Positions 15,975-44,752 of a stretch of 51,802 nucleotides of DNA are shown here, piece by piece. Source of the stretch: Escherichia phage vB_EcoS_NBD2. The DNA lies in the sequence record NC_031050.1. One strand, given 5' to 3'. The notes beneath the pieces are model-generated. The model was not told where the DNA came from. It was given only the letters and a program-made list of their open reading frames with translations, and ran no database searches. Numbering within the stretch: the first letter of the stretch is position 1; each line of letters opens with the position of its first letter. Both the position numbers and the translations under genes were made by a program.

Positions 15975-15996
15975 GGAGCCGAAAGGCTCCTTTTTT
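15975..15996 (+). terminator. intrinsic terminator (GGAGCC-gaaa-GGCTCC plus T6)
   Basis: Perfect 6-bp GC-rich stem, GNRA loop, T-run. Confidence 0.7.
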
Positions 15997-16017
15997 ATTA
16001 GCTATCACAAAATCTTG

Positions 16018-16045
16018 TTGACCGTTTAGCAAAAAGTGCTATTAT
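16018..16045 (+). promoter_or_regulatory. strong promoter for major capsid gene (TTGACC-16-TGcTATTAT); contains motif dyad in inverse orientation
   Basis: -35 16018-16023, TG 16037-16038, -10 16040-16045; TAGCA-aaaag-TGCTA at 16027-16041. Confidence 0.6.
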
Positions 16046-16087
16046 GAACGCGTGAACTAATCACTTCAAACAACAAAGGAAATCATC

Positions 16088-17041
16088 ATGACTATGAAAC
16101 TTGATTCATTCGAGAAGAACGAAATCACCCACGGCCTCCGCAAAATGGGCGTTTCGGCAAGTAAGGCAGACGGCCTGGGCATCTGGACTGTAGAGCAGAT
16201 GAAGCAGACCTTAAAGCGCCAGTACGAAGCCGCTTACCCTGAAACCTCCGCGCTGGCGTTGTTCCCTGTAACAACCGAGCTTGCGCCAACAACCCGCATC
16301 TTCGAATATATGAAATTCGATGGCGTGACGATGGCAAAGATTATCGCGGATTATACCGATGACCTGCCAACCGTTGACGCAACGCACAGCCTGGAAACTG
16401 GCCGCGTGCATCGCCTGGGTAACGCATGGTTGATTTCCATTGACGAAATCAAAACAGGTCAAGCGCTGGGCACTAGCCTTTCCGACCGCAAAGCGTCACT
16501 GGCTCGCGAAGGCCATGAATCATTGGTTAATGAACTGGTGTTCCAGGGTTCCAAGCCTCACAAAATTCTATCTGTATTTGATCACCCAAACATCACCCGC
16601 GTAACCTCTGCGGCTGGCGCATGGGCTGACCCTGAGAAGGCATCAGACGAACTGGAAGATCTGATCGCGAAGATGGAAGAGCTTACCAAAGGCAAGCACA
16701 AGATCACCGACATCGTGATCCCGCCGTCGCAGCGTAAATTGCTGGCAAAACGTATGCCTGAAACCACGATGAGCTATTTGCAGTGGTTCGAGTCTCAAAA
16801 CTCCGGCATCACGATTTCTTCAATCTCCGAGCTTGAAGATATCGACGGCATCGGCACTAAAGCTGTACTGGCTTATGAAAAAGATCCGCTCAACATGAGC
16901 ATTGAGATCCCAGAAGCCTTTAACATGCTGCCAATGCAGGCAAAAGATCTGCACTTTAAAGTTCCGTGTACTTCCAAAGCAACTGGCCTGATCGTTTATC
17001 GCCCTCTGACGATTATCATGCTGGTTGGCGTAGGTAAGTAA
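16088..17041 (+). CDS. major capsid protein
   Basis: 317 aa; strong promoter (TTGACC-16-TGcTATTAT), strong RBS aaaggaaatcatc, followed by strong terminator; position in head module. Confidence 0.65.
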   Translation: MTMKLDSFEKNEITHGLRKMGVSASKADGLGIWTVEQMKQTLKRQYEAAYPETSALALFPVTTELAPTTRIFEYMKFDGVTMAKIIADYTDDLPTVDATHSLETGRVHRLGNAWLISIDEIKTGQALGTSLSDRKASLAREGHESLVNELVFQGSKPHKILSVFDHPNITRVTSAAGAWADPEKASDELEDLIAKMEELTKGKHKITDIVIPPSQRKLLAKRMPETTMSYLQWFESQNSGITISSISELEDIDGIGTKAVLAYEKDPLNMSIEIPEAFNMLPMQAKDLHFKVPCTSKATGLIVYRPLTIIMLVGVGK

Positions 17042-17046
17042 TCCGA

Positions 17047-17075
17047 AGCCCCTGATTAATTTCAGGGGCTTTTTT
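17047..17075 (+). terminator. intrinsic terminator after major capsid gene
   Basis: 9-bp stem AGCCCCTGA/TCAGGGGCT plus T5. Confidence 0.7.
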
Positions 17076-17076
17076 G

Positions 17077-17105
17077 TTGACACGAGCGGCACCAGAGATT
17101 ATATT
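17077..17105 (+). promoter_or_regulatory. sigma70-like promoter TTGACA-17-TATATT
   Basis: Hexamers 17077-17082 and 17100-17105. Confidence 0.55.
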
Positions 17106-17150
17106 GAAGCCCTCAAGCAGTTAATTAACCAACCAAAGGAAATCTAAATC

Positions 17151-17417
17151 ATGGCTACTGAAAAACTCATTAAGCTGGAAAACTGCGGCGCTTGCCTCAT
17201 CCGTATCGGCAAGGTTGACGTTGCGCCAGAGGGTAAATTTGAAGTCACCGAAGAGCAGTTAAATTCCCAGGGTATCAAGTACCTCTTCAACCGCGAAGAA
17301 GTGCAGTTTGAGGATAACCCCAAACGAACCCGCGAATTCCTCGCGAAGATTCGCGAAAAGAAAAAGCCCGTCGTTGAAAAATCACTGGCAGAACGCGAAG
17401 AAGGCGGTATCGTCTAA
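17151..17417 (+). CDS. hypothetical protein with its own promoter and terminator (possible decoration or head protein)
   Basis: 88-aa ORF flanked by TTGACA-17-TATATT promoter and an intrinsic terminator. Confidence 0.5.
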   Translation: MATEKLIKLENCGACLIRIGKVDVAPEGKFEVTEEQLNSQGIKYLFNREEVQFEDNPKRTREFLAKIREKKKPVVEKSLAEREEGGIV

Positions 17418-17426
17418 AACCTTCCA

Positions 17427-17452
17427 GGGGCGCTTATGCGCTCCTTTTTTTT
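17427..17452 (+). terminator. intrinsic terminator
   Basis: Stem GGGGCGC/GCGCTCC (one G-U) plus T8. Confidence 0.65.
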
Positions 17453-17469
17453 AACTTGAGGAATTAATC

Positions 17470-17880
17470 ATGAACGAAGAGCAATACGCAGCAGCGGAGT
17501 TTATGCGCAGCCTAGCGCCAGCATTAAAGGGCGTTGATGATGTGACGATTATAGCATGGCTAACGCTTGCCGAAATGTTCGTTTGCCGGAACCGATTCAA
17601 AGCAGACTATCCAAAGGCGCTGGGGCTTTACGCAATGCACCTGATGTTTCTTGATGGCGCAATGAAGAAGGAGGGCGAAAGCATTGAGAACTACTCACGC
17701 AGATTGACAAGCTACACTCTGAGCGGTGAATTTTCTATGAGCTATGGCGCTGCAACTTCAAACACGGACGGGCGGCAGATTACCCAGACACCGTGGGGCA
17801 AGATGTACGATATTCTCAACAAGAAAAAAGGCGGCGGCTTCGGTCTGCTTTCCGGCATTAACAGAGGGTGCGGGCGATGA
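17470..17880 (+). CDS. putative head-tail connector or adaptor protein
   Basis: Position in head-tail joining block between capsid and major tail genes. Confidence 0.4.
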   Translation: MNEEQYAAAEFMRSLAPALKGVDDVTIIAWLTLAEMFVCRNRFKADYPKALGLYAMHLMFLDGAMKKEGESIENYSRRLTSYTLSGEFSMSYGAATSNTDGRQITQTPWGKMYDILNKKKGGGFGLLSGINRGCGR

Positions 17881-18251
17881 TTGATTATAACGAAGTGCAG
17901 AGGCTCACCGATCAGGGAATCGAAGCCTTTTCCGGTGGCGGCTCATTTGAGATCATAATCACTGGCGCTGGCAAGAAGATTGTAAACGGTGAAGAGGTTG
18001 TGATCCCAGAGGTTCGCGGCACTGTTTACGGCGCTGTGCGGGCTATCAGTCAACGATACGTTGACGGTGAAACAATCTTGCAGGGCGACAAGCGCGCCTT
18101 CTTCTCGAACGTAACGCCGATTGAAAACGGGATGATCATCATCCTTGAGGGTAAGCACTGGCGGGTAATCGACAATCGACCAGTAAACCCAACGCAAGGG
18201 CACGTGATCGCATATCGCCCAATCTTGCGAAAGGTGGCATCGCATGGCTAA
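17877..18251 (+). CDS. putative head closure protein
   Basis: ATGA overlap with upstream gene; position. Confidence 0.4.
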   Translation: MIDYNEVQRLTDQGIEAFSGGGSFEIIITGAGKKIVNGEEVVIPEVRGTVYGAVRAISQRYVDGETILQGDKRAFFSNVTPIENGMIIILEGKHWRVIDNRPVNPTQGHVIAYRPILRKVASHG

Positions 18252-18687
18252 CTACCAGATCAGAGAGTTTCATGATTCGGTTGCAAAGTGGATTAAGGCA
18301 TCGCAATTGGGGCTGGAGGATGTTGTCAGGATCATGGTTGCCAACATCCACAAGGATTTAGTTTACGGCTCACCAGTTGACACGGGGCGCTTTCGTGCCA
18401 ACTGGCAGATCACCGCCAACGTGCCGCCGTTCTACGCGCTCAATCAGTACGACAAAGACGGGAAGAAAACCATTGCAGAAGGTAAGCGAATCACAAACGC
18501 CATGCTCACCAGGGGCGCTGCAATAACCACGATTTATTTTTCAAACATGCTGATCTATGCCAATGCTCTTGAGTACGGACATTCGAAGCAAGCGCCAGCA
18601 GGCGTGCTGGGAATCGTGGCAATCCGGTTGAGATCTTACGTTAATAACGCAATTAAAGAGTCGAGGCTAAAAAATGGTATTAGATGA
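18244..18687 (+). CDS. putative neck or tail completion protein
   Basis: Overlapping gene in head-tail joining block. Confidence 0.4.
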   Translation: MANYQIREFHDSVAKWIKASQLGLEDVVRIMVANIHKDLVYGSPVDTGRFRANWQITANVPPFYALNQYDKDGKKTIAEGKRITNAMLTRGAAITTIYFSNMLIYANALEYGHSKQAPAGVLGIVAIRLRSYVNNAIKESRLKNGIR

Positions 18688-19102
18688 TTATGATGTTGAG
18701 GTTTCGGCGCGTAAGGCGCTTGCCTCTTTCGTTGGAGAGCGTTACCCGATCGCCTTTCCGAACTATGATTTCACCGAGCCGGATGATGGTTCAATGTGGT
18801 TAAAGTTCGACTACGTGCCAGTTGATAAGGTCTACAGGTCACTTGATCGCAAGTGCGTAAGCCTGATATCTATGATTCAGATCGGCGTTATCTTCCAGCC
18901 TGGGAGCGGTACGGACGACGCGCGCAAGCTGGCGAAAGAGCTTGTGAATTTTTTCGAAGATGGTAAAATCCTGAATGTGGGTTTTATTTTAAGCGGGGCG
19001 GAAACAAAGCCAACGCTAAAACACAATGCGGGCTGGCTAATCCCTATCCGCTTCACTGTCAGATATGACGAACACCCAGAACGGGAAAACAAAGGAGTTT
19101 AA
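18674..19102 (+). CDS. putative tail terminator protein
   Basis: Last gene before major tail protein. Confidence 0.4.
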   Translation: MVLDDYDVEVSARKALASFVGERYPIAFPNYDFTEPDDGSMWLKFDYVPVDKVYRSLDRKCVSLISMIQIGVIFQPGSGTDDARKLAKELVNFFEDGKILNVGFILSGAETKPTLKHNAGWLIPIRFTVRYDEHPERENKGV

Positions 19103-19103
19103 T

Positions 19104-19778
19104 ATGTCTCTTCCAAATGGTTCAAAGGTATTTATCGAGCGCACCCGCGCGGCGCAGGAAATTACCGCAAGCGCGATCTCCAACGCAGAGAATCCGGTTG
19201 CAACCGTAAATTCAACAACTGGACTTGCAGTTGGTGATTTTGTGCTTGTCACGGAATCCGTATGGGCAGGCCTGAAAAACCGCGTGCTTCGTATCAAAAC
19301 CGTAACCGCAGATACAAGCATCACGCTTGAAGGCGATAAGAGCACGAGCACGGTAAACCTGAACAAATACCCAGCGGGCGGCGCGTCAACTCTGGTTAAG
19401 ATCACCTCCTGGATTGAAATTCCGTGCGTAAGTGATATCGCCAAATCCGGCGGCGAGCAGCAGTATTACACTAAACAGTGTTTATCTGATGACCGCGAAC
19501 GCCAGATCCCAACCTTCAAGTCTGCAACGTCGATCGCGTACACCTTCGATTTCGACTACGCAAACCCCGTGACTGATTTGCTGATTGGTTACGATGAAGA
19601 TGGGAAAACCCGCGCGCTTTACATGTTCGTGCCAAAGGCAAGCTTCCCGATCCGCGCCTTCTCCGGCGTGCCGTCATTCGATGACGTGCCGAACACGGTA
19701 ATGAACGAGGATGAAACAACCATCCTGACAATCTCCCTGGACGGTAAATACGTTCACATGCAGGGCGAAGTTGACTAA
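19104..19778 (+). CDS. major tail protein
   Basis: ORF 19065..19778 trimmed to ATG 19104 after RBS aaaggag; followed by strong terminator; lies upstream of chaperone pair and tape measure. Confidence 0.6.
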   Translation: MSLPNGSKVFIERTRAAQEITASAISNAENPVATVNSTTGLAVGDFVLVTESVWAGLKNRVLRIKTVTADTSITLEGDKSTSTVNLNKYPAGGASTLVKITSWIEIPCVSDIAKSGGEQQYYTKQCLSDDRERQIPTFKSATSIAYTFDFDYANPVTDLLIGYDEDGKTRALYMFVPKASFPIRAFSGVPSFDDVPNTVMNEDETTILTISLDGKYVHMQGEVD

Positions 19779-19784
19779 ACCGAA

Positions 19785-19812
19785 AGGGGGGCATTGCCTC
19801 CCTTTTTCTTTT
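19785..19812 (+). terminator. intrinsic terminator after major tail gene
   Basis: GC-rich stem GGGGGGC/GCCTCCC followed by TTTTTCTTTT. Confidence 0.6.
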
Positions 19813-19852
19813 GTGATTTAATAGCGACTCAATCAAACAAGAGGATTAAACC

Positions 19853-20167
19853 ATGTCTTTCAAAGTGAAACTTTCTGAACGCCTGCCAGATTTCCCGCTT
19901 AACGTTAAATTCCATCTACCCAACGGCGTTGAGGCTGAAATTAAATACACCGTAAAGCACCGCAAGGCGAGTGAAATTCAAGAGCTTTACGCTCGTGAGA
20001 ACATCAAGGATCACGAGTTCATCACGGAAATTGCTTCCGGCTGGGATCTTGAAGATGAGTTTACCCCAGAGAATGCGCAAAAGCTGGTTGATAAATTCCC
20101 AGCGGCGGCGCTGGCACTGACTCAAAGTTACATGGCGGCTCTTGCTGGCGTGCGCGTAAAAAACTAA
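19853..20167 (+). CDS. tail assembly chaperone (G-like)
   Basis: 104-aa ORF immediately upstream of tape measure; ends with slippery heptamer A_AAA_AAC. Confidence 0.65.
   Translation: MSFKVKLSERLPDFPLNVKFHLPNGVEAEIKYTVKHRKASEIQELYARENIKDHEFITEIASGWDLEDEFTPENAQKLVDKFPAAALALTQSYMAALAGVRVKN
20158..20164 (+). other. candidate -1 programmed ribosomal frameshift site A_AAA_AAC
   Basis: Heptamer in zero frame as gtA AAA AAC taa; after -1 slip the frame reads CTA AAG CGG GCT GTA ACG CTG ATG... without stops into the downstream ORF. Confidence 0.6.
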
Positions 20168-20184
20168 AGCGGGCTGTAACGCTG

Positions 20185-20484
20185 ATGTTCAAGCGACAAC
20201 CAACCGATCAGGAATTGGAGGATTACGGTTTAACCCGTGAGGATTACGATAATCAAGATCCTGAAATACTCCTTTTCGATGAATCAATGTATCAGTCATG
20301 GGAAACATTCTGCGCAATGCAAACCCAATGGCGATCGGCTGGCGCTGGTGCTTACGGCCTGGATTATAATGTGTTGCCTATGCTGTTTCGAATCTATAAA
20401 ATAGATGATGAAGAAATGGCCTTAAATGATATTCGCGTGATGGAAGGGGAAGCCCTAAAAGCAATGCGAAAACTTCAATCATAG
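20185..20484 (+). CDS. tail assembly chaperone T-like segment (probably expressed as a G-T frameshift fusion)
   Basis: ORF in the -1 frame relative to 19853..20167, open from the slippery site through 20484. Confidence 0.55.
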   Translation: MFKRQPTDQELEDYGLTREDYDNQDPEILLFDESMYQSWETFCAMQTQWRSAGAGAYGLDYNVLPMLFRIYKIDDEEMALNDIRVMEGEALKAMRKLQS

Positions 20485-20505
20485 CGCCTTCGGGCGCTTT
20501 TTTTA
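20483..20505 (+). terminator. intrinsic terminator before tape measure gene
   Basis: AGCGCC-ttcg-GGCGCT plus T7. Confidence 0.6.
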
Positions 20506-20517
20506 TATGGGGGTTTT

Positions 20518-23217
20518 ATGACCGACCAATACGCAGGTTTGACCCTGGGCGTTGACGTTTCCCAGGTAGACAAGGCGGTTAAATCTCTGGACGCATTCGC
20601 AGAGGCGAACGACAGAGCCGCTAAGGGCGTTGAGAGCTTCGTTGATGAGGAGCAGGTTGCTCGACAGAAGGCCAAGGAGTTCGGCAACGAATTGAAGAGG
20701 CAGGCCAAAGAGTTTAAAAACGTTGAGGCCTCGATTGATCCCACCTTTGCCAAAATGCAGAAGTTGCGCGGCGCGGCGGAGCAATTAGACCAACTCTGGA
20801 AGGCGGGAGTTGTGCCAGATGAGAAATTCTTTATTCTTGGCGAAATCATCGAAAACCAGACCGTAGCACTCAATAAATCTCGCGCAGCGCTGACGGAAGA
20901 GGGTAAGGCAGCAGCAGAGAACGCCAGGAAGAAGGCTACGGCTCAACGCGAAGCTGACAGCTTCATCAAGCAACTGACGGCGCAGGCCAACGCAGCAACG
21001 ATGACCAAAAACGAACTTCTCGAACTTCGAGCGGCGGAGTTGGGAGTTACGGCGCAGGCGGCACCATTAATCGCATCGCTCAACAAGCAAACAAGTGCGC
21101 TGAATCTTTCCGGCCTTTCGGCTGGTCAGTACTCCCAGGCGATGCGAATGCTTCCGGCGCAGATCACGGACGTTGCAACATCACTTGCAGGCGGTATGCC
21201 GATTTGGTTAGTGGCAATCCAGCAGGGCGGGCAGATTAAGGACTCATTCGGCGGCGTGGCGAACACGTTCAAAGTTTTGTTGTCTTTCCTTAATCCGGTT
21301 AACGTTGGGATTGCGGCTACGGTTGGCGCGCTGGGAACGCTGATTTATGCGGTGGTCAAGGCCAAAAGCGAGATCACAGCGGCGCAAAAGGAAGTAACTG
21401 AAACGCTGGGAATGACAGGTGATTACGCAGATAAGCTGGCGTTAAACCTCCGCAACATTTCACAGGCCGCAGGTGAGACAACCGCCGAAACAGCAAAGAC
21501 TTTCATCACCACGAAAGACAGCGCAGAGCAGGCGATTGAAAAGCTTATTGATGTTGGATTTAGTTACGACGAGGCGCGCCGGAAGGTTGAAACTTACAAA
21601 GGATCGTCTAACTTCACCAACCTTAACGCCGACATTGAAGAGCACCGCTTACAGGTGTTAGGCCTCAAAGACGCATGGAGTGACGCGGCGGAAGAGGTGA
21701 AAAACTACTACACTGGAGCGAATGAGGGCAAGCAAAGTGTTGCTTTGGGTGGTGCGATTGATCCTATTATGCGCATTATCGAAAACGCAAAGAACTTGCA
21801 GAAGGAAACGAACCAGGCTCGAATTGAAGGTAACAAGATTGTTAACGACACAATCAATTCAATTAACAAAGAGTACCTGGCATCGAACAAGATCGCGGCG
21901 GCGGAAAAGGCGATTGTAGACGCGAAGAAGCAGGCTAAAATTATTTCACAATCCGGCAATGATGTTGCCATTAAGCAGGCCAACGAGCTTGTCAAGATTC
22001 GCGAAAAAGAATTGAAGCAGGCGCAGGATGCGGAAGCAAAACGCAACAAGCCAAAGAAAACATCAACTGGCGCGATCACAAAATCGCCAACCGAACAGCT
22101 TGATCGTGAGCTTTACACTCTGAAAGCGCAACTTGTGGTTATGCAGCAACACGCGAACATCAACGACAAGATCAGCAACCAGAGAAGGGCGCTATGGGCT
22201 ACAGAGGCACAAATTACCGTGCTTAAAGATACCCAGAGCAAACGAGCGCTAACCAACGATGAAAAGGCGTTGTTAGCGAGTCAAGAGAAAGTGCTTGAAC
22301 TTGCAAAACAGAAAGCGGAGTTAGGCGATCAGATTTTGCAGCAAGAGCAGTTAAACGCGCTGAATGACCAATCGTTGAAATTCGTCATGCAAATGAACGA
22401 AAGCACGAAGGCGCTGAACGACTCGCGAGCGATGGGCAACCGTGAAGCAGAAAGGGCGGCAGAGCGTGCGAAAATCACCTCTGATTACCTTAAAAACGGC
22501 GGCGGCGCTGACGATGAGAATCTCAAGAAGATGATTCAAGCCCAGGATGAATACTACGCCGCAGAAGATGCCAAGCGTGCTGATTGGTTAGCTGGGGCGC
22601 AAAACGCCTTTGCCAACTACGGTGACGCGGCAACGGATATGTATTCAAACGTAGGCAGCATCGCAACCAATGCTCTTAACGGAATGTCAGATATGATGAC
22701 CGATTTCCTTATGACAGGGCAGGCCAACTTTGCAGACTTCGCGAAGTCAATCATTAGCCAGATCATAAAGATGATCACGCAGATGGTTATTTTCAACAGC
22801 ATTTCCGGCATGATGGGCGGCGGAGGCGGTTTCTCATTCGCTAAAGGATCATACGCAACGGGCGGCTACACTGGCGACGGCGGCAAGTATGCGCCAGCGG
22901 GCGTGGTTCACCGTGGCGAGTTCGTTATGACGAAGGAGGCAACGAAGAGAATCGGTGTTGATAATCTTTACCGAATGATGCGCGGCTATGCTTCTGGAGG
23001 TCTGGTTGGTGGTTCTGGTTCAGGCGTTTCGGGCACCAATCAGAGCAGCGGGCTTTTATTGAACATCGGCAGCATTCCGGTTAACATCAATAACGGAAGC
23101 GATCCGGCGGGAATGGAGCAAGGGATCAGGATGATTGTTACGCAGATGATGACGGAAGCTTGCGCGCAGGGTGGCGAAATCAATCGCTTTGTAAATGCTA
23201 AAATGGGGAACGGTTAA
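20518..23217 (+). CDS. tail tape measure protein
   Basis: 899 aa, largely coiled-coil-like, Gly-rich C-terminal segment; sits between chaperone pair and minor tail genes. Confidence 0.8.
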   Translation: MTDQYAGLTLGVDVSQVDKAVKSLDAFAEANDRAAKGVESFVDEEQVARQKAKEFGNELKRQAKEFKNVEASIDPTFAKMQKLRGAAEQLDQLWKAGVVPDEKFFILGEIIENQTVALNKSRAALTEEGKAAAENARKKATAQREADSFIKQLTAQANAATMTKNELLELRAAELGVTAQAAPLIASLNKQTSALNLSGLSAGQYSQAMRMLPAQITDVATSLAGGMPIWLVAIQQGGQIKDSFGGVANTFKVLLSFLNPVNVGIAATVGALGTLIYAVVKAKSEITAAQKEVTETLGMTGDYADKLALNLRNISQAAGETTAETAKTFITTKDSAEQAIEKLIDVGFSYDEARRKVETYKGSSNFTNLNADIEEHRLQVLGLKDAWSDAAEEVKNYYTGANEGKQSVALGGAIDPIMRIIENAKNLQKETNQARIEGNKIVNDTINSINKEYLASNKIAAAEKAIVDAKKQAKIISQSGNDVAIKQANELVKIREKELKQAQDAEAKRNKPKKTSTGAITKSPTEQLDRELYTLKAQLVVMQQHANINDKISNQRRALWATEAQITVLKDTQSKRALTNDEKALLASQEKVLELAKQKAELGDQILQQEQLNALNDQSLKFVMQMNESTKALNDSRAMGNREAERAAERAKITSDYLKNGGGADDENLKKMIQAQDEYYAAEDAKRADWLAGAQNAFANYGDAATDMYSNVGSIATNALNGMSDMMTDFLMTGQANFADFAKSIISQIIKMITQMVIFNSISGMMGGGGGFSFAKGSYATGGYTGDGGKYAPAGVVHRGEFVMTKEATKRIGVDNLYRMMRGYASGGLVGGSGSGVSGTNQSSGLLLNIGSIPVNINNGSDPAGMEQGIRMIVTQMMTEACAQGGEINRFVNAKMGNG

Positions 23218-23219
23218 TC

Positions 23220-25695: not shown

Positions 25696-25718
25696 GCCCG
25701 CCTTGCGCGGGTTTTTTT
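25696..25718 (+). terminator. intrinsic terminator before J-like gene
   Basis: CCCGC-cttg-GCGGG plus T7. Confidence 0.6.
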
Positions 25719-29370: not shown

Positions 29371-29399
29371 AAAAAAGGAGCCGAAAGGCTCCTTTTATT
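29371..29399. terminator. bidirectional intrinsic terminator (GGAGCC-gaaa-GGCTCC)
   Basis: A-run upstream and T-run downstream of hairpin between convergent genes. Confidence 0.7.
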
Positions 29400-29732
29400 T
29401 TAGATGATTTTGTTGGGATCTGGTAGGTAACGGGAAGTCTGTGATGCGATCATGTCATCGCGCCCCATCTTTCCTTTGCCAAAGGCGAACTTCATGGAGT
29501 AGTTGCCCTGGTCTTTGTAGCACATCACGCTAACGTTTTTTCGAAGGTGCTTATCGAAAATCACGTTGCTTGATTCCTGAATGGTGATTTCTTTATTCTG
29601 GCAATCAAGATTAAAAGTAACCTCGCCAGTTAGTGAGAGGCGGCTTGCATCAACCGGATAGCCAATATTAATGTTTAAAGCCATAGCATTTAAAGGCAAC
29701 AGGAAGAGCACAGCGAGCATGATTTTTTTCAT
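29400..29732 (-). CDS. secreted small protein (candidate superinfection exclusion or receptor-blocking protein)
   Basis: Signal peptide MKKIMLAVLFLLPLNAMA; RBS acgagga; lies just downstream of J on the opposite strand. Confidence 0.45.
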   Translation of the reverse strand: MKKIMLAVLFLLPLNAMALNINIGYPVDASRLSLTGEVTFNLDCQNKEITIQESSNVIFDKHLRKNVSVMCYKDQGNYSMKFAFGKGKMGRDDMIASQTSRYLPDPNKII

Positions 29733-32335: not shown

Positions 32336-32403
32336 CACTAAAAGCTAAACAAAAAGAGGCTCATACGGTATAATGAGCCTCAATCAAACAAACAAAGAAG
32401 GTA

Positions 32404-33598: not shown

Positions 33599-33606
33599 TG
33601 GGGGTA

Positions 33607-33637
33607 AAAGAAAAGGAGCCTTTCGGCTCCTTTTTTT
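33607..33637. terminator. bidirectional intrinsic terminator (GGAGCC-tttc-GGCTCC)
   Basis: A-rich upstream, T7 downstream, between convergent ssb and tail fibre genes. Confidence 0.7.
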
Positions 33638-35933
33638 ATTTCGCAGTAAGCGCTGCAACCAACGCCTTCAACTCTTCAACATCGCTTTCCAGTTTTTCGA
33701 TCCTTAAATCCTTCTCCTCATCCTTTTTCTTTAACTCCTTGAATGCCTCAACGTAAAGCGCAGATAGGGCAGAATAATCAACGCCCAGAGGTTTTTCTAT
33801 CTCCCTGCATTCCTTATCAAGCACCCCCTTATAATCAGTTTCCGTTACCGCTTCCGGCAGAATCTTTTTAACATCCTGAGCGATAACACCAGCCTTTCTC
33901 ACAGTGTCCTGGATCGTGGTGTGCATTGAATAAGTCACGCCGTTAAGCTGGCAGATCTTATCAAGTGCGCTTACCACTGGCTTAATCCAGAATTTCGCCC
34001 TTTCATCAGACGTACTGGTGAAGGTTGTGGCTCGACATTCACCAGTAGCACCGTTTAGCGTTAACTGCTGACCTGAAGCGCCAGTACCGACGTTATCAGA
34101 TCGCAGGTTAAGCATCTGTGTATCGTTAGAATAGATCACGGCGCGGTTTTTTCCGCTAGTGTTCCGTAACCATAAGTGGGTGTTTGATGTCCCAGCACCG
34201 CCACTAATGTAAACGCTCGATCCGTTAACGAAAAGGTTAGCCGTTTCAGTATCTTTTCCGGCAAGCCTGATTCTGTCGCTAAGAGTTATGTTTGACGAGT
34301 GAGTATAGTTATGGAAAACCATATCATCCGTGGTGTTTGAAGGGTTTCCAATATATCCAGTATTCTTTGATAGATCGTTAAACAAGATATAGTGGGAATA
34401 ACCAGCCGTCGCTGGCCTAATCGCAATAGACGCCTCCGGCGATGAAGTTGCGATCTTTGAACTGTTAAAGTTTACGTCTTGCGCCTCAACAGTCAACCTT
34501 CCCCCACCAATGTAAGTGGAACCCTTAGAGATAATGCTCGTATATCCAGCGTGGAATCTCAAGTTTCCGCCACCAATCTGATCGGAGTTCATTCCGTCGC
34601 AAATTATCCTTGCGTCATAGTCATACTTTCCGCCGTAGTGAAAATCAACGTAAGATGCAACGTTCGGGTTTTTAATCCCAACTTCAATATTCGCTGGGGC
34701 TGGAGTCAAGGAGTTGAATGTTACGTAATTCTCCTCTGTAATGGCTATTGTTCTGGGAACCCCTGCTCCGTCACGCTTAATCCACTCAACAGACCCGTTT
34801 GCGTTTGCTCTGTTTTCGCTTGTTACAATCGTTGTGCCATCAGCCCTGTTTCTCCTGGCAACTAATGATCCAGACGGTGCGGAATCATCACTATTTCGCC
34901 TAATCTCCAAAGCGTTATTAAGATACAGGTTTTGGAATGTTGGGGAGTTACCAACGCCAAGCTCAAGGTTATTCCTTGATGTCTCTTTGTTCGCCACGTC
35001 AGAAAGGTTATTAGCCTTCTTCAACTGGTTATCAGGGTTAGCGCTAGCCGCTCTATCCGCCTCCGTTTTTGCCCGATCCGCTTGCTGCGTTGCCGTGGCA
35101 GCCGATGCCGCCGCAGCAACCTTGCTGGAGTTTGCGTTAGTCTCTGACGTTTTGGCGTTAGTTTCTGACGTTTTGGCAGCAGTTGCAGATCCAGAAGCCG
35201 CACTTGCTGAACCAGCCGCCGCCGTCTGCGATGCCGCCGCAGCAACCTTGCTGGAGTTTGCGTTAGTCTCTGACGTTTTGGCGTTAGTCTCTGACGTTTT
35301 GGCAGCAGTTGCAGACCCAGAAGCCGCACTTGCTGAACCAGCCGCCGAAGTTGCAGAAGATGCAGCCGCAGTGCGAGAAGTTCCCGCCGCAGTTTCAGAA
35401 GCTTTGGCGTTAGTCTCTGAGGTCTTAGCCGCCGTCTGTGATGCCGCCGCCGCCGTCTGTGATGCCTTCGACGCATTCTCTGACGCTTTCGAGTTGGTTT
35501 CAGAGGTTTTGGCGTTGGTCGCAGCGGTGCTGGCCGTTTGTGCATCTGCCTTTACCTGGTTGCCAATTGCAACGATACGCTCCCAATCGAAGTTTTGGAA
35601 AAACTCGATCGCATCTTCGATTACGGTTTCTTTGCTTTGGTAGTAACGTAGCGTTTCCGCCACATCCTGCGCCAGCCCGTCAACTGTGATGGAATCGTGC
35701 AACAAGATCACATACTTCGTGCCAGCCGCCACAACTGCGCCATCCGTAGCAGTTGCCCGCATTTCGGTTGGGCTAACGATTGATGAGATAGTGCAGATCG
35801 TTAGCGGTGCAGTTTGAAAAATCATGGTTGCGCCAACGCGAACAAGAGACAGCTTGTCTTGCCAGTTGGTGCCAACCCCCACAATAACGCCCTGGGCATT
35901 TAGCGAGGCCGTGCCCGTTCTGTAAATAGCCAT
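33636..35933 (-). CDS. tail fibre protein with C-terminal intramolecular chaperone-like domain
   Basis: 765 aa; internal Ala/Ser/Thr-rich repeats (KTSETNA units); C-terminal segment with coiled-coil end (EKDLRIEKLESDVEELKALVAALTAK). Confidence 0.65.
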   Translation of the reverse strand: MAIYRTGTASLNAQGVIVGVGTNWQDKLSLVRVGATMIFQTAPLTICTISSIVSPTEMRATATDGAVVAAGTKYVILLHDSITVDGLAQDVAETLRYYQSKETVIEDAIEFFQNFDWERIVAIGNQVKADAQTASTAATNAKTSETNSKASENASKASQTAAAASQTAAKTSETNAKASETAAGTSRTAAASSATSAAGSASAASGSATAAKTSETNAKTSETNANSSKVAAAASQTAAAGSASAASGSATAAKTSETNAKTSETNANSSKVAAAASAATATQQADRAKTEADRAASANPDNQLKKANNLSDVANKETSRNNLELGVGNSPTFQNLYLNNALEIRRNSDDSAPSGSLVARRNRADGTTIVTSENRANANGSVEWIKRDGAGVPRTIAITEENYVTFNSLTPAPANIEVGIKNPNVASYVDFHYGGKYDYDARIICDGMNSDQIGGGNLRFHAGYTSIISKGSTYIGGGRLTVEAQDVNFNSSKIATSSPEASIAIRPATAGYSHYILFNDLSKNTGYIGNPSNTTDDMVFHNYTHSSNITLSDRIRLAGKDTETANLFVNGSSVYISGGAGTSNTHLWLRNTSGKNRAVIYSNDTQMLNLRSDNVGTGASGQQLTLNGATGECRATTFTSTSDERAKFWIKPVVSALDKICQLNGVTYSMHTTIQDTVRKAGVIAQDVKKILPEAVTETDYKGVLDKECREIEKPLGVDYSALSALYVEAFKELKKKDEEKDLRIEKLESDVEELKALVAALTAK
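35104..35355 (-). repeat. in-frame tandem duplication (2 x 126 bp) inside tail fibre gene, each unit containing a 2 x 21-bp sub-repeat
   Basis: Copy 1 starts 35104, copy 2 starts 35230, near identical; encodes repeated KTSETNA-type units. Confidence 0.8.
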
Positions 35934-35995: not shown

Positions 35996-36022
35996 GCACA
36001 AAAAAACCCTCCGAAGAGGGTT
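35996..36022 (-). terminator. intrinsic terminator for - strand primase transcript
   Basis: CCCTC-cgaa-GAGGG with A8 on + strand, i.e. T8 after the hairpin on - strand. Confidence 0.6.
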
Positions 36023-36027
36023 TAAAT

Positions 36028-36963: not shown

Positions 36964-37017
36964 TGCTTTTGCTCCGGCAATAAAAAAGGTTGCACCGATT
37001 ATGGCACAACCTCTGGC

Positions 37018-37547: not shown

Positions 37548-37585
37548 AGCCGTAATCGAACGAACCTCAAAGGCATTTAATCACC

Positions 37586-39661: not shown

Positions 39662-40077
39662 TCACCGATAAAGGCGAATATCTTGAGTATTACCAGGCTA
39701 ACCCGCTGGACACGTGGAAAGAGGACAAACACCAGGTTGATTGCGTGGCATGGCTGCGCTATCACTACCCGAACCTTTTATTCTGGCACACAGTCAACGA
39801 AGGGAAAAAGCATATCAATTCCGCCCTTCGTGATGAGCAGGCGGGGCTAAAAAAGGGCGTGAGCGACTTCGTAATCCTGATTGGTCATCACGATCGCAAG
39901 TACGCATTTGCAGCGATTGAGTTGAAGAGAACCAACAAGAGCGGCAAGGCCAAAGCCTCACCAGTTAGCAAAGAGCAGAAAGCTTTCTTGCTTGACGTTC
40001 GCGAGCGCGGAGGATTCGCGGCGGTTGCATACGGTCTGGATCAGTTTAAATTAGCGATCGAAGATATGTTGAAATAG
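39658..40077 (+). CDS. VRR-NUC domain nuclease
   Basis: 139 aa with D...E.K arrangement (DFVILIG...AIELKR) typical of VRR-NUC. Confidence 0.55.
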   Translation: MITDKGEYLEYYQANPLDTWKEDKHQVDCVAWLRYHYPNLLFWHTVNEGKKHINSALRDEQAGLKKGVSDFVILIGHHDRKYAFAAIELKRTNKSGKAKASPVSKEQKAFLLDVRERGGFAAVAYGLDQFKLAIEDMLK

Positions 40078-40117
40078 CACGAATTGCTAAACACGTGCCG
40101 GAGCAATCCGGCATAAT
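40075..40117 (+). promoter_or_regulatory. motif promoter (TAGCACgaaTTGCTAAAC, 22 nt, CATAAT)
   Basis: Motif 40075-40092, hairpin GCCGGA-gcaa-TCCGGC, -10 40112-40117. Confidence 0.55.
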
Positions 40118-40147
40118 CTCCACATCGAAACCAAATGAGATAAGACT

Positions 40148-40876
40148 ATGAAAGACGTTGCAGACAAAGACACTCATGACGCATTCGTAACCTTCGAACA
40201 GGTTGAGCGTGAGAACTTCATCACAAACGCGCTCGTTCCAGGTTGCGGGCATTATTCGGCGGTCAAGCCGGACACGTTCTATCAGGTTACGGGCAACCGT
40301 TATGCCGGAAGCAAGACGCCGGATGTTGTGCGCGATTTGTGGGCTACCGATCGCGAGCTTATCGGCTGGATGGAAAAGCGTTACGGCAAGTATGACATTG
40401 ACGCGGCAGCGAGCGAAAACAACGCAGTGTGTGAAAAGTTCTACGACGAAAAGCGCAACTGTTTGAAAATCTGGTGGGGCAAAGACAAGCACATCTGGCT
40501 CAATCCTCCGTACTCACATCCCGATCCTTTCGTTAAAAAGGCGATTGAGCAGATGGAGCACGGCAACCAGATTGATATGCTTCTTCCTGGCGACAACTCA
40601 ACGGCATGGTTTGCCGAAGCGCGAGCAAACGCGGCGGAGGTCATCTGGATTGAGGCAGAGATCACAGAGATTGACCAGCAGGAATACTGCCGAACCGGAC
40701 GCCTGGCCTTTATCTCTGGGCTAACCGGAAAACCAGTTGACGGCAATAACAAAGGCAGCGTGATTTTCATCATGCGCGAACTGAAAGAAGGCGAGACACA
40801 ACAAACGCATTACGTTTCCGTAAGCGAGATTTGCCCAGGTGTTAGCCGTAAAAAACCACGCAAGCGGAGTGTTTAA
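40148..40876 (+). CDS. dam: DNA N6-adenine methyltransferase (phage Dam-type)
   Basis: Catalytic NPPY motif in IWLNPPYSHPDPF. Confidence 0.7.
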   Translation: MKDVADKDTHDAFVTFEQVERENFITNALVPGCGHYSAVKPDTFYQVTGNRYAGSKTPDVVRDLWATDRELIGWMEKRYGKYDIDAAASENNAVCEKFYDEKRNCLKIWWGKDKHIWLNPPYSHPDPFVKKAIEQMEHGNQIDMLLPGDNSTAWFAEARANAAEVIWIEAEITEIDQQEYCRTGRLAFISGLTGKPVDGNNKGSVIFIMRELKEGETQQTHYVSVSEICPGVSRKKPRKRSV

Positions 40877-40877
40877 G

Positions 40878-41108
40878 ATGCGAGATCGCAACGTTAGACT
40901 GAATGAGATCGGCCTGAAATGTTTATTTGTTGGCCTTGTTTGCGCACAGCTTGAAATGGCTGGATTCACTGGAGATGCCTTCAAGCTGGCAAACTCTCTT
41001 GATATGAGCTTTGAAGAGATAGCGCCGAAGGATATCATTGAATGGGGCGCGCTAATCGCCAAAGACCTTGAAGAGTTCAAGGCTGAAAACCCCGAAGAGT
41101 TCGAATAG
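40878..41108 (+). CDS. hypothetical acidic protein
   Basis: ORF 40839..41108 trimmed to ATG 40878; acidic C-terminus. Confidence 0.4.
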   Translation: MRDRNVRLNEIGLKCLFVGLVCAQLEMAGFTGDAFKLANSLDMSFEEIAPKDIIEWGALIAKDLEEFKAENPEEFE

Positions 41109-41148
41109 CACTAATTGCTAAACATACCCGCCGCCGTGCGGGTATAAT
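41106..41148 (+). promoter_or_regulatory. motif promoter (TAGCACtaaTTGCTAAAC, 22 nt, TATAAT)
   Basis: Motif 41106-41123, -10 41143-41148. Confidence 0.6.
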
Positions 41149-41179
41149 TATTTCTATACCAACCGAACTGGAGCAGAAA

Positions 41180-41434
41180 ATGAAACGCACTTTCGATTAC
41201 TCAAAAACCGTTAGCACCTACAATTTCACAGAGTCACGCGGCAAAATCTTGATGCCTCACCTTCTGCGCCTGGCGCAATCATGCGCGCGTGAATCAATCG
41301 CCCTGGGTGATAATGGAGGGCTTGACGAGGCGATCGCGGTTGTTTATCTTCGCGCCGCATATGGTCATGAACCAGTTGGCACGCTTGAGCAAATGGCTAC
41401 GGCCTTCAACCTGCATGACGGCACATTATGTTAA
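41180..41434 (+). CDS. hypothetical protein
   Basis: 84-aa ORF, RBS ggagcag, preceded by motif promoter. Confidence 0.5.
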   Translation: MKRTFDYSKTVSTYNFTESRGKILMPHLLRLAQSCARESIALGDNGGLDEAIAVVYLRAAYGHEPVGTLEQMATAFNLHDGTLC

Positions 41435-41664
41435 TCGTTGAGCAGGGCAAGCGAGCCGTTTGGGAGCACATGAAAGAAGCTGGAATGGGCGATGATATCG
41501 CCCTGATCGCCAAATACTTCGACATTAAAGATGTGTGCCTAATCTACAACGGCAAGATGACTTTCATCGAAGAGAGGCCGCGCAAGTCAAACAGGATCGC
41601 AGTTGCAACGCAGCCATCGAAATCACTGGCGGAATATCTGAAAGACGCACGAGGCAAGAAATGA
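41428..41664 (+). CDS. hypothetical protein
   Basis: 78-aa ORF overlapping neighbours. Confidence 0.45.
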   Translation: MLIVEQGKRAVWEHMKEAGMGDDIALIAKYFDIKDVCLIYNGKMTFIEERPRKSNRIAVATQPSKSLAEYLKDARGKK

Positions 41665-41918
41665 ACTTACCAGGCTTGAACTTTGACCCCTTCCAGTATG
41701 CAGAGGTTGAGCGCATAACGGATGGTGATTACAGAAAAATCCCTTTCTCTGATTGGTTGCCGCCTGATTTTGAAGATGTGCTTTGCTCGCGCGGAGGAGG
41801 CTATAAGTTGATGTATTTCAGCCCCGCCACTGGTATGATGGCTACGGCTGAAACAGAAACGGCTGGCGAGTTTATCAACCCGAAAGATCTTGATCACTGG
41901 TTGAAAAAGGTAGCATGA
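41661..41918 (+). CDS. hypothetical protein
   Basis: ORF 41535..41918 trimmed to ATG 41661 (ATGA overlap). Confidence 0.4.
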   Translation: MNLPGLNFDPFQYAEVERITDGDYRKIPFSDWLPPDFEDVLCSRGGGYKLMYFSPATGMMATAETETAGEFINPKDLDHWLKKVA

Positions 41919-41989
41919 AACTAATTTTAGCTATAGTATTGCCTCCCGTAATCGGTTTTATTTTAATGTACTTTATTGTTATGTAAGGA

Positions 41990-43147
41990 TTGAAAATGCA
42001 ACGCAAAATTTCAGATGAGCAGTTAATCGCAGAGCGAGAATCAGGCAAAACACAGCGCCAGATCGCGGAAGAGTACGGCATGAATCAGCGCACAGTTGAG
42101 CAGCGTTGCGCACGCCTGGCGAAGAAAGGCCACGGGCACGGTAACAGCACTGTTAGCCGCCATGTGCCGGACGGGTTCGCAGTAAAGGGCACGTCAACCA
42201 TGATTCGCGCGAATGGCGAAGAGGTGATCCGATGGGTTAAGACCGATCAGGATCGCGAGAAGTTAGCAGCCATGATGGATGCGGCTATTGATGCGTTTTG
42301 CGAAGAGTTGCCGCGAGCAGCAGCACAGCCAGCCCCACTGGTTCACAACTGGAAAGAAGATCAGCTTGCTCTTTATCCGGTCTTTGACCTGCACATTGGC
42401 GCTATGGCTCATAAGCACGAGTGCGGCGAAAACTACAGCACTGACATTTCAGAAAAGGTGCTGGGAGACTTCTTCAACTACGCCGTAAACGTAGCGCCGG
42501 AAGCGAAAAAAGCAGTTCTGTTAATCGGCGGTGACTTCCTTCACTCTGACGGCCTGGACGCTGTAACACCTGCAAGCGGTCACGTTCTCGATCAGGACTC
42601 ACGCTACGCTAAACTTGTGCATGTTGCGATCCGCTCCACTCGCCGCGCAGTTGCAAAAATGCTGGACAAGCACGCAGAGGTTGAGATCCAGATCATCGAG
42701 GGGAACCATGACCAGGCGGGCATGATTTGGCTTCGTGCTGCAATGGCTGCATTCTATGAAGATGAGCCGCGCGTCACCGTTGACGTTAGCCCAATGATTC
42801 TGCACCGGACGAAGTGGGGCAAAACGCTGTTAGGATACACTCACGGGCACACGATGAAGAAAGCAGAAACGCGCCTTGCGGCGATGGCTACGGACTTCCG
42901 CGAAGAGTTCGGCACCAGCAAATACATTTACACCCACTCTGGGCACTGGCACCACCAGACGATCACAGAGGGCACTTTAGGGATTGATGAAGTGCATGGG
43001 CAGTTAGGCGCAAAAGATGCCTACGCAGCGCGCGGCGGCTGGCGCTCATATCGTCAAGCGGCGGTGATCGTCTACTCAAAAGAGTTTGGCGAAATCGGGC
43101 GTTTCGTGTATCGTCCAGAAATGGCAGGAAATAGCACGAAAAGCTAA
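41990..43147 (+). CDS. HTH domain fused to calcineurin-like metallophosphoesterase
   Basis: N-terminal HTH-like ESGKTQRQIAEEYGMNQRTVEQ; metallophosphatase motifs DLHIG, GGDFLHSDG, EGNHD, HGH, GHWHH in order. Confidence 0.6.
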   Translation: MKMQRKISDEQLIAERESGKTQRQIAEEYGMNQRTVEQRCARLAKKGHGHGNSTVSRHVPDGFAVKGTSTMIRANGEEVIRWVKTDQDREKLAAMMDAAIDAFCEELPRAAAQPAPLVHNWKEDQLALYPVFDLHIGAMAHKHECGENYSTDISEKVLGDFFNYAVNVAPEAKKAVLLIGGDFLHSDGLDAVTPASGHVLDQDSRYAKLVHVAIRSTRRAVAKMLDKHAEVEIQIIEGNHDQAGMIWLRAAMAAFYEDEPRVTVDVSPMILHRTKWGKTLLGYTHGHTMKKAETRLAAMATDFREEFGTSKYIYTHSGHWHHQTITEGTLGIDEVHGQLGAKDAYAARGGWRSYRQAAVIVYSKEFGEIGRFVYRPEMAGNSTKS

Positions 43148-43174
43148 ACAATTGCCGGAGTAATCCGGCATACT
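43132..43174 (+). promoter_or_regulatory. motif promoter, degenerate (TAGCACgaaAAGCTAAAC, 22 nt, CATACT)
   Basis: Motif 43132-43149, -10 43169-43174. Confidence 0.45.
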
Positions 43175-43204
43175 CCAGCTATACCAACCAAAGAGGAAAA
43201 CATT

Positions 43205-43312
43205 ATGAAAAAGTTTGTTTTAGGCTACGTAATCCCTTTCGTTCTGGGCGCTGTAGTCACCGCCGCTTTACTTTCCGTCATTCACCTGGCATCAAATTTT
43301 AAAGGGTTCTAA
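43205..43312 (+). CDS. small hydrophobic peptide (35 aa)
   Basis: ATG 43205 after RBS agaggaaaa and motif promoter; one predicted TM helix; below ORF-track cutoff. Confidence 0.4.
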   Translation: MKKFVLGYVIPFVLGAVVTAALLSVIHLASNFKGF

Positions 43313-43313
43313 A

Positions 43314-43490
43314 ATGAAAGTTCGCTGCATTCGGAATGATTCAAAATCACTGCCTTACTATGTCGGAGCAGTATATCGCGCGGTTGATATCGGCGGTATG
43401 TATGAGATCCGCGATGGTCAAGGCTCCGCAATTCACGCGCCGCTTGAAGGTCACTATCTTGAATTTATTCCGATAGAAGAAAAGAAATAG
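43314..43490 (+). CDS. hypothetical small protein (58 aa)
   Basis: ATG 43314 one nt after previous stop; followed by terminator; below ORF-track cutoff. Confidence 0.35.
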   Translation: MKVRCIRNDSKSLPYYVGAVYRAVDIGGMYEIRDGQGSAIHAPLEGHYLEFIPIEEKK

Positions 43491-43510
43491 AATCATCACC
43501 TTACCCAATA

Positions 43511-43534
43511 GGAGCCTTTCGAGGCTCCTTTTTT
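43511..43534 (+). terminator. intrinsic terminator (GGAGCC-tttcga-GGCTCC plus T6)
   Basis: Same stem as four other terminators. Confidence 0.65.
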
Positions 43535-43615
43535 GTGCTTCTCGTTTGTCAAAAAGTGCTGTATTATTGGCCTTACTTAATTAAATCATTGACAACTATT
43601 TCAAAGGGGGATCTC

Positions 43616-43831
43616 ATGCGCGAGGTCATTAACGCTATCACTTCCGGCGCTGGCGGCGCTACATTCACCGGAGTTGCAACGGGGCAGCTAGCCATTGCGT
43701 TCGCAACCTTCGTATTTTTCGTCCTGTTTGGCTTCTGGGGCGCATACTGGAAATACAAAGACAGCAAGGCTATCCGCCAGGCCATTGACGCAGGCGACTT
43801 GCAAACGGCGCTAAAAATCAGGGGTAAATGA
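43616..43831 (+). CDS. holin
   Basis: ORF 43535..43831 trimmed to ATG 43616 after RBS aaaggggga; 71 aa with central hydrophobic helix and charged C-terminus; directly upstream of endolysin. Confidence 0.55.
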
Positions 43832-44319
43832 CGATGAAGAAGATCGCAAGCATGGCATTTGGCGCAGCGCTTGCCGCAACGGTTCCGTTAATCGAAAAGT
43901 TTGAGGATGTCAAATACGATGTTTATTACGATATCGCTGGCATCCCTACTGTGTGCGCAGGCATCACAGGATCAGACGTTATCATTGGTAAGCGGTACAC
44001 GAAGCGCGAGTGTGACGCATTGCTAATGAAGCATTTAGCGGTTGCGAAGGCGGAAGTTGACAAGCAAATCAAAGTTGATGTGCCGGACTCTTTCCGCGCG
44101 GCAATGTACAGCTTCACCTACAACGCAGGCACGGGCGCTTATCGTAAATCAACCATGCTGAAACTCACCAACGCTGGCGATCTCAAGGGCGCGTGTAATC
44201 AGTTGTGGTCATGGGTTTACTTCTACAACCCGAAAACGGGCAAAAAAGAGAAGTCGAAAGGCCTTAAAAATCGCCGTGGCTTCGAATATGAATATTGCAT
44301 GAAGGATCTGAAAAAATGA
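43828..44319 (+). CDS. endolysin, T4-lysozyme-like with N-terminal signal-anchor-release (SAR) segment
   Basis: Weakly hydrophobic Ala/Gly-rich N-terminus followed by E...D...T catalytic pattern ([21 protein letters not shown]). Confidence 0.65.
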
Positions 44320-44735
44320 AAAGGCTTTACAAATTAATCAAGTGGATTTTCATCGGGTTAAGCGCAATTGTCATTTGTGGTTGTTCGGCAACGTCTGCCC
44401 TGACTGGTTTAATCGGCAGCAAGCCAGAAATCAGCGCGCAGGCTGGCGCGGAAAACACGAAACAGACGGTTGGGATCAATGGCAAGGTTGACCAATCCAG
44501 CGAGGTTGAGACAACCATCAAAGATTCAACCGTTGGCAAGGTTGACACGTCTAACGGAAAGAAAACCAGCGCCTCAAGCATAACGGCTGACACCATCAAG
44601 GCCGATAAGATTGAGATCAGGAATCAGGAAGGCGGCGATGTTGCCGGATGGATTGCGCTATCTGGCGTTGTTGGTCTGTTTATTTTGCTGGGCGCGTCTG
44701 CGCTACGGAAACGACGATATGAGAAAGGAGCCTAA
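44316..44735 (+). CDS. unimolecular spanin (T1 gp11-like)
   Basis: N-terminal signal with Cys-containing lipobox-like region (IVICGC) and a single C-terminal TM helix. Confidence 0.55.
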
Positions 44736-44752
44736 CGGCTCCTTTTTTTTAT
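44728..44752 (+). terminator. intrinsic terminator after lysis cassette (GGAGCC-taac-GGCTCC plus T9)
   Basis: Overlaps spanin stop codon. Confidence 0.7.

Follow-up and report, generated by a model that had tools for sequence, protein, structure and literature searches.

Five hairpins with a common stem

The DNA analysed here is sequence record NC_031050.1 (vB_EcoS_NBD2), a stretch of 51,802 nt that we refer to as the window, and the elements in question are five terminator-type hairpins within it that share the stem GGAGCC/GGCTCC. The window belongs to a Klebsiella phage of the genus Vilniusvirus (Drexlerviridae) and is 97% identical to the phages vB_KM5a1_KLB19 and vB_KaeD_HazelMika, from whose annotation the gene names used below were taken. 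The late regions of T1-like phages have been described as modules bounded by rho-independent terminators, with 21 terminators in phage TLS (PMC11447400). In the literature on Drexlerviridae, we found nothing specific on the reuse of terminator stems or on maps of transcript ends.

A terminator scan of the window returned about 19 terminator-like sites, or about 15 after promoter-embedded hairpins were removed, and five of them share the GGAGCC stem. These five, with their positions relative to open reading frames (ORFs), are as follows.

15972..15996, plus strand: predicted unidirectional intrinsic terminator after the capsid decoration gene (ORF end 15967); AAA-GGAGCC-GAAA-GGCTCC-T6
29371..29396, both strands: predicted bidirectional intrinsic terminator between J (plus strand, end 29369) and a convergent minus-strand gene (29400-29732); A6-GGAGCC-GAAA-GGCTCC-T4
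33611..33637, both strands: predicted bidirectional intrinsic terminator between ssb (plus strand, end 33598) and the tail fibre gene (minus strand, 33636-35933); A4-GGAGCC-TTTC-GGCTCC-T7
43511..43534, plus strand: predicted unidirectional intrinsic terminator after a small ORF (end 43490), upstream of the lysis cassette (holin/endolysin/spanin); GGAGCCT-TTCG-AGGCTCC-T6
44724..44750, plus strand: predicted intrinsic terminator overlapping the spanin stop codon (ORF end 44735) and facing a convergent minus-strand gene (44749-44946); AAA-GGAGCC-TAAC-GGCTCC-T8

The 51.8-kb window contains the pattern GGAGCC-N(3-8)-GGCTCC at exactly five places (15975-15990, 29377-29392, 33615-33630, 43511-43528, and 44727-44742). 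Dinucleotide shuffles contained a mean of 0.01 such hairpins, and none of 100 shuffles reached five. On its own, the hexamer GGAGCC shows no enrichment (24 copies, with 19.9 expected), so what is unusual is the hairpin arrangement and not the lone hexamer. No restriction-site-type avoidance or enrichment of GGAGCC was found in the window, and the hairpin pattern occurs there only in terminator context. The loops are, in order, GAAA, GAAA, TTTC, TTTCGA, and TAAC. The same 16-mer, GGAGCCGAAAGGCTCC, is found at 15975 and 29377, its exact reverse complement lies at 33615, and for the hairpin at 43511 the better reading is GGAGCCT/AGGCTCC, a stem of 7 bp, with the loop TTCG. A preliminary description of this DNA had reported five terminators with this identical stem and these loops. 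The count, exactly five where 0.01 were expected, confirms this and places the reuse far above chance; four of its positions are accurate, and the fifth, given as 44728, is really 44727.

The five hairpins have the anatomy of intrinsic terminators, with stems of 6-7 bp containing five G-C pairs, loops of 4 nt, and abutting T-runs (T6, T4(A)T4, T7, T6, and T8, in order). They start from 8 nt before (44727) to 21 nt after the last base of an ORF. Their folding energies, between -14 and -18 kcal/mol with z-scores of -3.3 to -6.6, are far below those of shuffled sequences: -16.7 kcal/mol (z -4.8) at 15972..15996, z of about -5 on both strands at 29371..29396, -14.1 kcal/mol at 43511..43534, and -17.7 kcal/mol (z -6.6) at 44724..44750. 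Fold, T-run, and gene-end position thus support the earlier designation of all five as intrinsic terminators, in the sense of terminator-type hairpins. It was also right that two are bidirectional: at 29377 and 33615, T-runs are present on both strands, the A-runs pair with the T-runs and lengthen the helix, and an A-run, a symmetric hairpin, a T-run, and convergent genes occur together. This combination is partly present at 44727, which lies between converging genes and has a weak minus-strand tail, TTTCTCAT, and is absent at 15975 (minus-strand tail TTTCGGAT) and 43511. By junction type, three of the five lie between convergent genes (29377, 33615, and 44727; J, at the first of these, encodes the tip attachment protein), and the other two, 15975 and 43511, precede promoter-like sequence.

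An Rfam covariance-model search, with the gathering score as the criterion for a match, gave no match at the five hairpins; the sole match in the window was a tRNA at 9424-9508. We also considered a Shine-Dalgarno role for the AAAGGAG of the 5' arm and rejected it, as inspection by eye found no suitably spaced start after GGAG at 15975 or on the minus strand at 29377. The genes next to these two hairpins start about 100 nt away and have Shine-Dalgarno sites of their own.

Conservation of the five sites across the family

We compared the window with Escherichia phage LF82-10, which has about 73% nucleotide identity to it. The core GGAGC/GCTCC is present at all five orthologous sites of LF82-10 and the full GGAGCC at four of them; loops are altered at three sites and outer pairs at three, and the flanks are clearly orthologous. 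Because LF82-10 has the core at all five sites, the five-fold identity is, on this comparison, older than the split between the two lineages and inherited in place. The other terminators appear to be about as conserved as the five: among the 11 non-GGAGCC sites common to the two phages, six have identical stems and four more have stems that are changed or one pair longer.

To cover the family, we used 145 IMG/VR loci (80 centred on the helicase gene and 65 on tail tip protein L) and the T1 genome, 146 in total, and assigned terminators to orthologous sites by tblastn anchors. A terminator is kept at each site across the family, and its stem turns over. The search for the 6-mer pair in related genomes that the preliminary description had proposed yielded 60 GGAGCC hairpins in the 146 loci, nearly all at the same five sites and essentially none at the roughly 11 other sites covered. 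The share of family loci with GGAGCC differs among the sites, of which the one after the decoration gene is named for the major capsid protein (MCP) gene that follows it.

Post-ssb site: about one third (33%)
Post-spanin site: about 12%
Post-J site: about 7%
Pre-MCP site: about 4%
Pre-holin site: about 2%

At two sites, the family contains graded series of stems. The post-ssb series runs through GGGGCC/GGCCCC, GGGGCC/GGCTCC (with a G·U pair), and GGAGCC/GGCTCC, and the pre-holin series through GGGAACCT/GGGTTCCC, GGGAGCCT/AGGTTCCC, and GGAGCCT/AGGCTCC. Since these neighbours, including G·U intermediates, occupy the same sites, the two series point to compensatory evolution in place from different neighbouring stems. 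At the post-J and pre-MCP sites, the stems of other clades are unrelated, and no stepwise route to GGAGCC is seen. Across the family, each of the five sites acquires or loses GGAGCC independently of the other four. The stems may be regarded as long-lived, site-specific characters, possibly moved along with exchanged modules.

The window itself also contains a one-step neighbour of the shared stem, with a G·U pair where the five have A-U.

17427..17452, plus strand: predicted terminator after a small late gene; GGGGCGC-TTAT-GCGCTCC-T8

Loops vary in a manner of their own. In the post-ssb hairpin (33615-33630 in the window; loci L126-L263), some genomes have the loop GAAA, read relative to ssb, and others the complementary TTTC, a small loop inversion within a perfect palindrome, and the post-J loops TTGC and GCAA alternate likewise.

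Frequency of the stem and of stem sharing

The viral and bacterial distribution of the stem is wide. At least 118 viral contigs contain the pattern AAGGAGCC-N4-GGCTCCTT, and 109 of these are unrelated to the window phage; the same GGAGCC hairpin also occurs in bacteria from many phyla, in at least 120 genomes. Usage differs greatly from stem to stem, with 24 viral contigs for the control stem GGTGCC and at least 118-120 each for GCAGCC and GGAGCC, and we rejected a null model of uniform stem usage as unrealistic on these counts. Background frequencies taken from hairpin-chosen loci were likewise set aside as uninformative through ascertainment, and control-ascertained loci were used instead. 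In the helicase-centred loci of the family, GGAGC/GCTCC is the second commonest outer stem (36 of 496 terminator sites, 7%).

Sharing of a 5-bp stem by two to four sites of one genome is frequent in the family, T1 being an example. Outside the window/LF82 lineage, a permutation test gave no excess of stems shared within a genome (2 pairs against 10.3 expected, at 5 bp). This deficit, seen at four mapped sites (loci L123-L202), could reflect clade structure or an avoidance of repeated hairpins.

Origin of the shared stem

The reading we consider probable is that the five are ordinary intrinsic terminators and that their shared stem is the inherited, lineage-specific state of five old, fixed sites. 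In a T1-like phage that uses the host RNA polymerase, the five hairpins would mark the ends of transcription units. Following the established understanding of intrinsic termination, the nascent RNA would fold into a GC-rich hairpin of 6-7 bp with a tetraloop directly before a U-run, on which the polymerase would pause and release. Where an A-run precedes the hairpin and the genes converge (29377, 33615, and weakly 44727), the same DNA would terminate transcription on both strands, and the hairpins at 15975 and 43511 would each close a unit, just ahead of the major capsid promoter and the lysis-cassette promoter, respectively. The common ancestor of Vilniusvirus and the LF82-like phages would have had the GGAGC/GCTCC core at all five sites, and the core would have been kept since, short stems presumably changing by rare compensatory steps only, within a few purine-rich 5' arms linked by G·U pairs (GGRRCC/GGYYCC). 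A second function for the shared stem is not needed, and nothing supports one.

Several points weigh against this reading. The sequence, structure, position, and family distribution of the five hairpins were read directly from the genomes, and termination at them is what we infer. The joint chance of GGAGCC at all five sites, calculated as the product of the family site frequencies on the assumption of independence, is about 2e-6, a rough figure. A 6-bp stem at three or more sites of a 22-kb region was found in one of 52 loci, and the window has four in that region; judged from these loci, the window/LF82 lineage is a clear family outlier in the sharing of 6-bp stems. The GGAGCC stem is also no universal favourite: none of about 240 terminator sites carried it in 1.24 Mb of unrelated phage DNA chosen for other stems. 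Given the outlying lineage and the joint chance, some homogenising event or pressure in the ancestor, beyond drift alone, would seem to be required. As to why the ancestor had five alike, ancient homogenisation and selection are the candidate origins that we infer.

The best-surviving alternative, which we nevertheless consider unlikely, is concerted evolution, in which one terminator hairpin was copied into pre-existing terminator sites of the Vilniusvirus/LF82-like ancestor. Ectopic gene conversion or template switching would have done the copying, perhaps through the RecE/Erf/SSB proteins of the phage acting on the homology of A-run, hairpin, and T-run, and the five would then be partly paralogous in sequence and not in position. 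The phage does encode an exonuclease VIII, a recombinase, and an SSB, and both the joint chance and the outlying position of the lineage are what such copying would produce, but outside the lineage shared stems fall below expectation in the permutation test. The identical 16-mer at three sites also agrees with copying, as does a 32-nt inverted repeat with one mismatch that a repeat finder detected between 29371-29402 and 33605-33636. However, identity among the flanks of the five averages 13.0 of 20 positions, compared with 11.9-12.2 of 20 with unrelated terminators, one unrelated pair of which reaches 19 of 20. As the flanks are no more alike than unrelated ones, the 32-nt repeat is accounted for by the hairpin and generic A/T runs. 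Replacement is suggested at the post-J and pre-MCP sites, where other clades have unrelated stems that no series of single steps links to GGAGCC. Against copying, the post-ssb and pre-holin sites have G·U intermediates, which testify to change in place, and the window and LF82-10 have unlike loops at three of the five sites. Finally, a second GGAGCC copy within 8 kb was present in 4 of 120 hairpin-chosen bacterial loci, against none of the roughly 240 sites in unselected phage DNA, which favours copying.

The duplicated terminator cassette proposed in the preliminary description is unsupported by the flank values, the orthologous contexts of the five, and the stepwise G·U intermediates. Nor do the hairpins behave as a mobile cassette, in that homology does not extend into the flanks and all five lie where relatives also have a terminator. 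Three related candidates were tried and rejected. An extended repeat around the hairpins, suggested by repeats of 32 nt and 38 nt, reduced to the hairpin and generic A/T runs on comparison of the flanks. The block between the post-J and post-ssb terminators, considered as an inverted counterpart of T1 genes 31-32, showed no homology to them. As for the hairpins as mosaic breakpoints, only the post-ssb hairpin meets a break in similarity, which is expected anyway at a gene end. At this break, the similarity to HazelMika, otherwise about 97%, ends 10 nt past the post-ssb hairpin and resumes at 34988 (33640-34988). The similarity to KLB19 ends at 33679, with a 438-nt match at 34541-34978 and the main alignment again from 34989. 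The C-terminal part of the tail fibre is swapped, with one boundary at the post-ssb terminator.

Less likely again is that the GGAGCC hairpin is maintained at the five boundaries, either by recurrent ectopic conversion driven by the recombinase or by a lineage-specific factor that reads the hairpin, for example in timed read-through of terminators or in defining stable transcript ends. If it were true that identity is actively maintained in one of these ways, the window would provide a small new example of coordinated control of phage terminators.

We regard as improbable a recognised stem, with selection on the sequence itself. The GGAGCC/GGCUCC hairpin, or the palindrome in the DNA, would then be bound by a host factor or by a phage factor particular to this lineage; such a factor could be an antiterminator, a DNA-binding dimer, or a protein that processes or stabilises RNA. 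The 10-nt core is constant at five sites in two lineages that are about 27% diverged, while loops and outer pairs have changed; yet other terminators are similarly conserved, and finding none of five altered is unremarkable if about one third of terminators change. In function the five stand out, as three convergent junctions and two terminator-promoter junctions, and in the family the hairpin is confined to them among about 16 covered sites, but there GGAGCC has been taken up or lost independently at each. In addition, the pattern occurs in terminator context only, with the hexamer neither enriched nor avoided, the hairpin recurs in phages unrelated to this one and across many bacterial phyla, and no Rfam family matches. 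An RNase III processing site consists of about 20 bp or more of double-stranded RNA; the core helix here has 6-7 bp, or 9-13 bp with the A·U extension, and is short for this enzyme. The suggestion in the preliminary description that the stem is also recognised as a site, for example for RNA processing, thus gained no support and is improbable, considering the independent stem changes and the similar conservation elsewhere.

Pure coincidence, in which five independent terminators settled on one of the few well-terminating short stems with no shared history or cause, is equally improbable, for although phage stem usage is very uneven and the rank of GGAGC/GCTCC in the helicase-centred loci (p of about 0.07) gives a probability of about 0.01 for at least five of 19 sites, the site-specific frequencies give the far lower joint chance above, LF82-10 has the same state at all five sites, which points to inheritance and not to five separate origins here, and the GGAGCC hairpins of other family members fall on the same five sites.

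Under the favoured reading of five inherited terminators, the analysis adds detail to the transcription map of a Vilniusvirus genome that had no annotation, in agreement with the published layout of modules in T1-like phages. In this family, terminator hairpins would be long-lived and position-specific, evolving by G·U-mediated compensatory steps, so that one genome may contain identical stems with neither duplication nor a second function behind them.

Other repeated elements in the window

A 21-nt repeat, aaATAGCACnnnTTGnTAAAA, was reported from TLS, T1, and Rtp without an assigned function (PMC11447400). The window has about 21 copies of the repeat (a)ATAGCAC-N3-(T/A)(T/A)G-N-TAAA in gene direction. 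Positions below are those of the A of AGCAC.

778, 1280, 1906, 3332, 4332, 5003, 6328, 7182, 8217, 32334, 37507, 40076, 41107, 43133, plus strand: repeat
37039, 47532, 49333, 49935, 51198, minus strand: repeat

About 17 copies have a -10-like hexamer (TATAAT, CATAAT, TATAGT, or TATTAT) whose first base lies exactly 36 nt past the A of AGCAC and, about 60-75 nt beyond the repeat, an ATG. With this fixed spacing, the repeats look like a promoter family in which an upstream element replaces the -35 element and a structured element is embedded; the MotA-box promoters of T4 are comparable. In about 13 of the repeat promoters, a strong GC-rich hairpin (z at or below -3.4) separates the repeat from the -10 hexamer. 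It is variable in sequence and conserved in structure and often puts the hexamer in its loop or 3' arm; we found no earlier description of it.

1294-1315, 1920-1941, 3346-3367, 4344-4367, 5008-5038, 7187-7215, 8228-8253, 32344-32369, plus strand: promoter-embedded hairpins
36986-37015, minus strand: promoter-embedded hairpin

Two inverted copies lie near the unidirectional terminators, the first 33 nt after the hairpin of terminator 15975. Read on the plus strand, the inverted copies give CAAAAAGTGCT(G)TATTAT, an extended -10-like element before the capsid and lysis genes.

16018..16045, plus strand: promoter-like site TTGACC-16-TATTAT with TG, after terminator 15975 and ahead of the major capsid gene (16088), holding the inverted ATAGCAC repeat 16024-16046
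43544-43567, plus strand: second inverted ATAGCAC repeat copy (GTTTGTCAAAAAGTGCTGTATTAT), 16 nt after the hairpin at 43511 (end 43528), upstream of the lysis cassette

Promoter cassettes of 65-73 nt, comprising the repeat, the hairpin, the -10 hexamer, and a leader CATCGAAACGAAAC, are repeated between the two early-gene arms with 70-89% identity.

6324-6388 and 47472-47536: promoter cassettes
49867-49939 and 51130-51202: further promoter cassettes

The ATAGCAC promoter family is more interesting than the terminators and merits a separate study.

Other repeats include a 20-mer, AAACCCTCTTCGGAGGGTTT, present twice (6341-6360 and 36004-36023), and the stem CCCGC/GCGGG, also present twice (9946-9959 and 25697-25711). 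Conservation of the 15-mer CCCGCCTTGCGCGGG at 25697 reaches as far as T1, which has two copies of it (locus L004, 22793-22807 and 24972-24986). A tRNA-Ser gene (anticodon GCT; 9424-9511, plus strand), on which Rfam and ARAGORN agree, lies just upstream of the terminase genes. In the minus-strand tail fibre gene, about 12 copies of a tandem repeat at 35103-35540, in which periods of both 21 nt and 126 nt are seen, presumably encode a 7-residue fibre-shaft repeat.

Comparison with known systems

The placement of terminator-flanked modules in the window agrees with the "transcripton" layout published for T1-like late regions (PMC11447400). T1 itself (NC_005833) is, like the window phage, a member of Drexlerviridae with the same gene order, and has annotated terminators after the counterpart of the decoration gene, J, ssb, and spanin, as well as a pre-holin hairpin with a T-run. 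The post-J terminator of T1 lies at a convergent junction of its own, and the post-ssb terminator is annotated for both strands. The T1 stems at the five sites are unrelated or merely similar to GGAGCC (GGACTATCC, GGGCATC, GCCCCGC, GGCTGGCATG, and GGAGGC), and the stem that T1 reuses most is CCCGC/GCGGG, at four sites.

Repeated short regulatory stem-loops between phage genes also recall the promoter-early stem-loop (PeSL) cassettes of T4-type phages, reportedly described by Arbiol et al. in 2010 and said to have been proposed to promote module recombination. PeSLs have extended shared sequence (promoter and stem-loop) and lie in non-orthologous places, whereas the terminators of the window share a 16-nt hairpin only, at orthologous positions. 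The 65-73 nt ATAGCAC promoter cassettes are reminiscent of PeSLs and are closer to them than the terminators are. REP/BIME elements are likewise identical short intergenic palindromes, some of which act as transcript-end hairpins. They are about 35 nt long, imperfect, and dispersed by a dedicated transposase, with no obligatory U-run; the five copies in the window, in contrast, occupy fixed old sites, each with canonical terminator anatomy.

A further likeness in organisation is to bacterial bidirectional intrinsic terminators, which have the same A-run, perfect hairpin, and T-run between convergent genes as 29377 and 33615. An A-rich tract upstream of the hairpin is a mark of such terminators (PMC12207403). 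There is no difference in principle between them and the hairpins described here, which are phage instances, three of them with one common stem.

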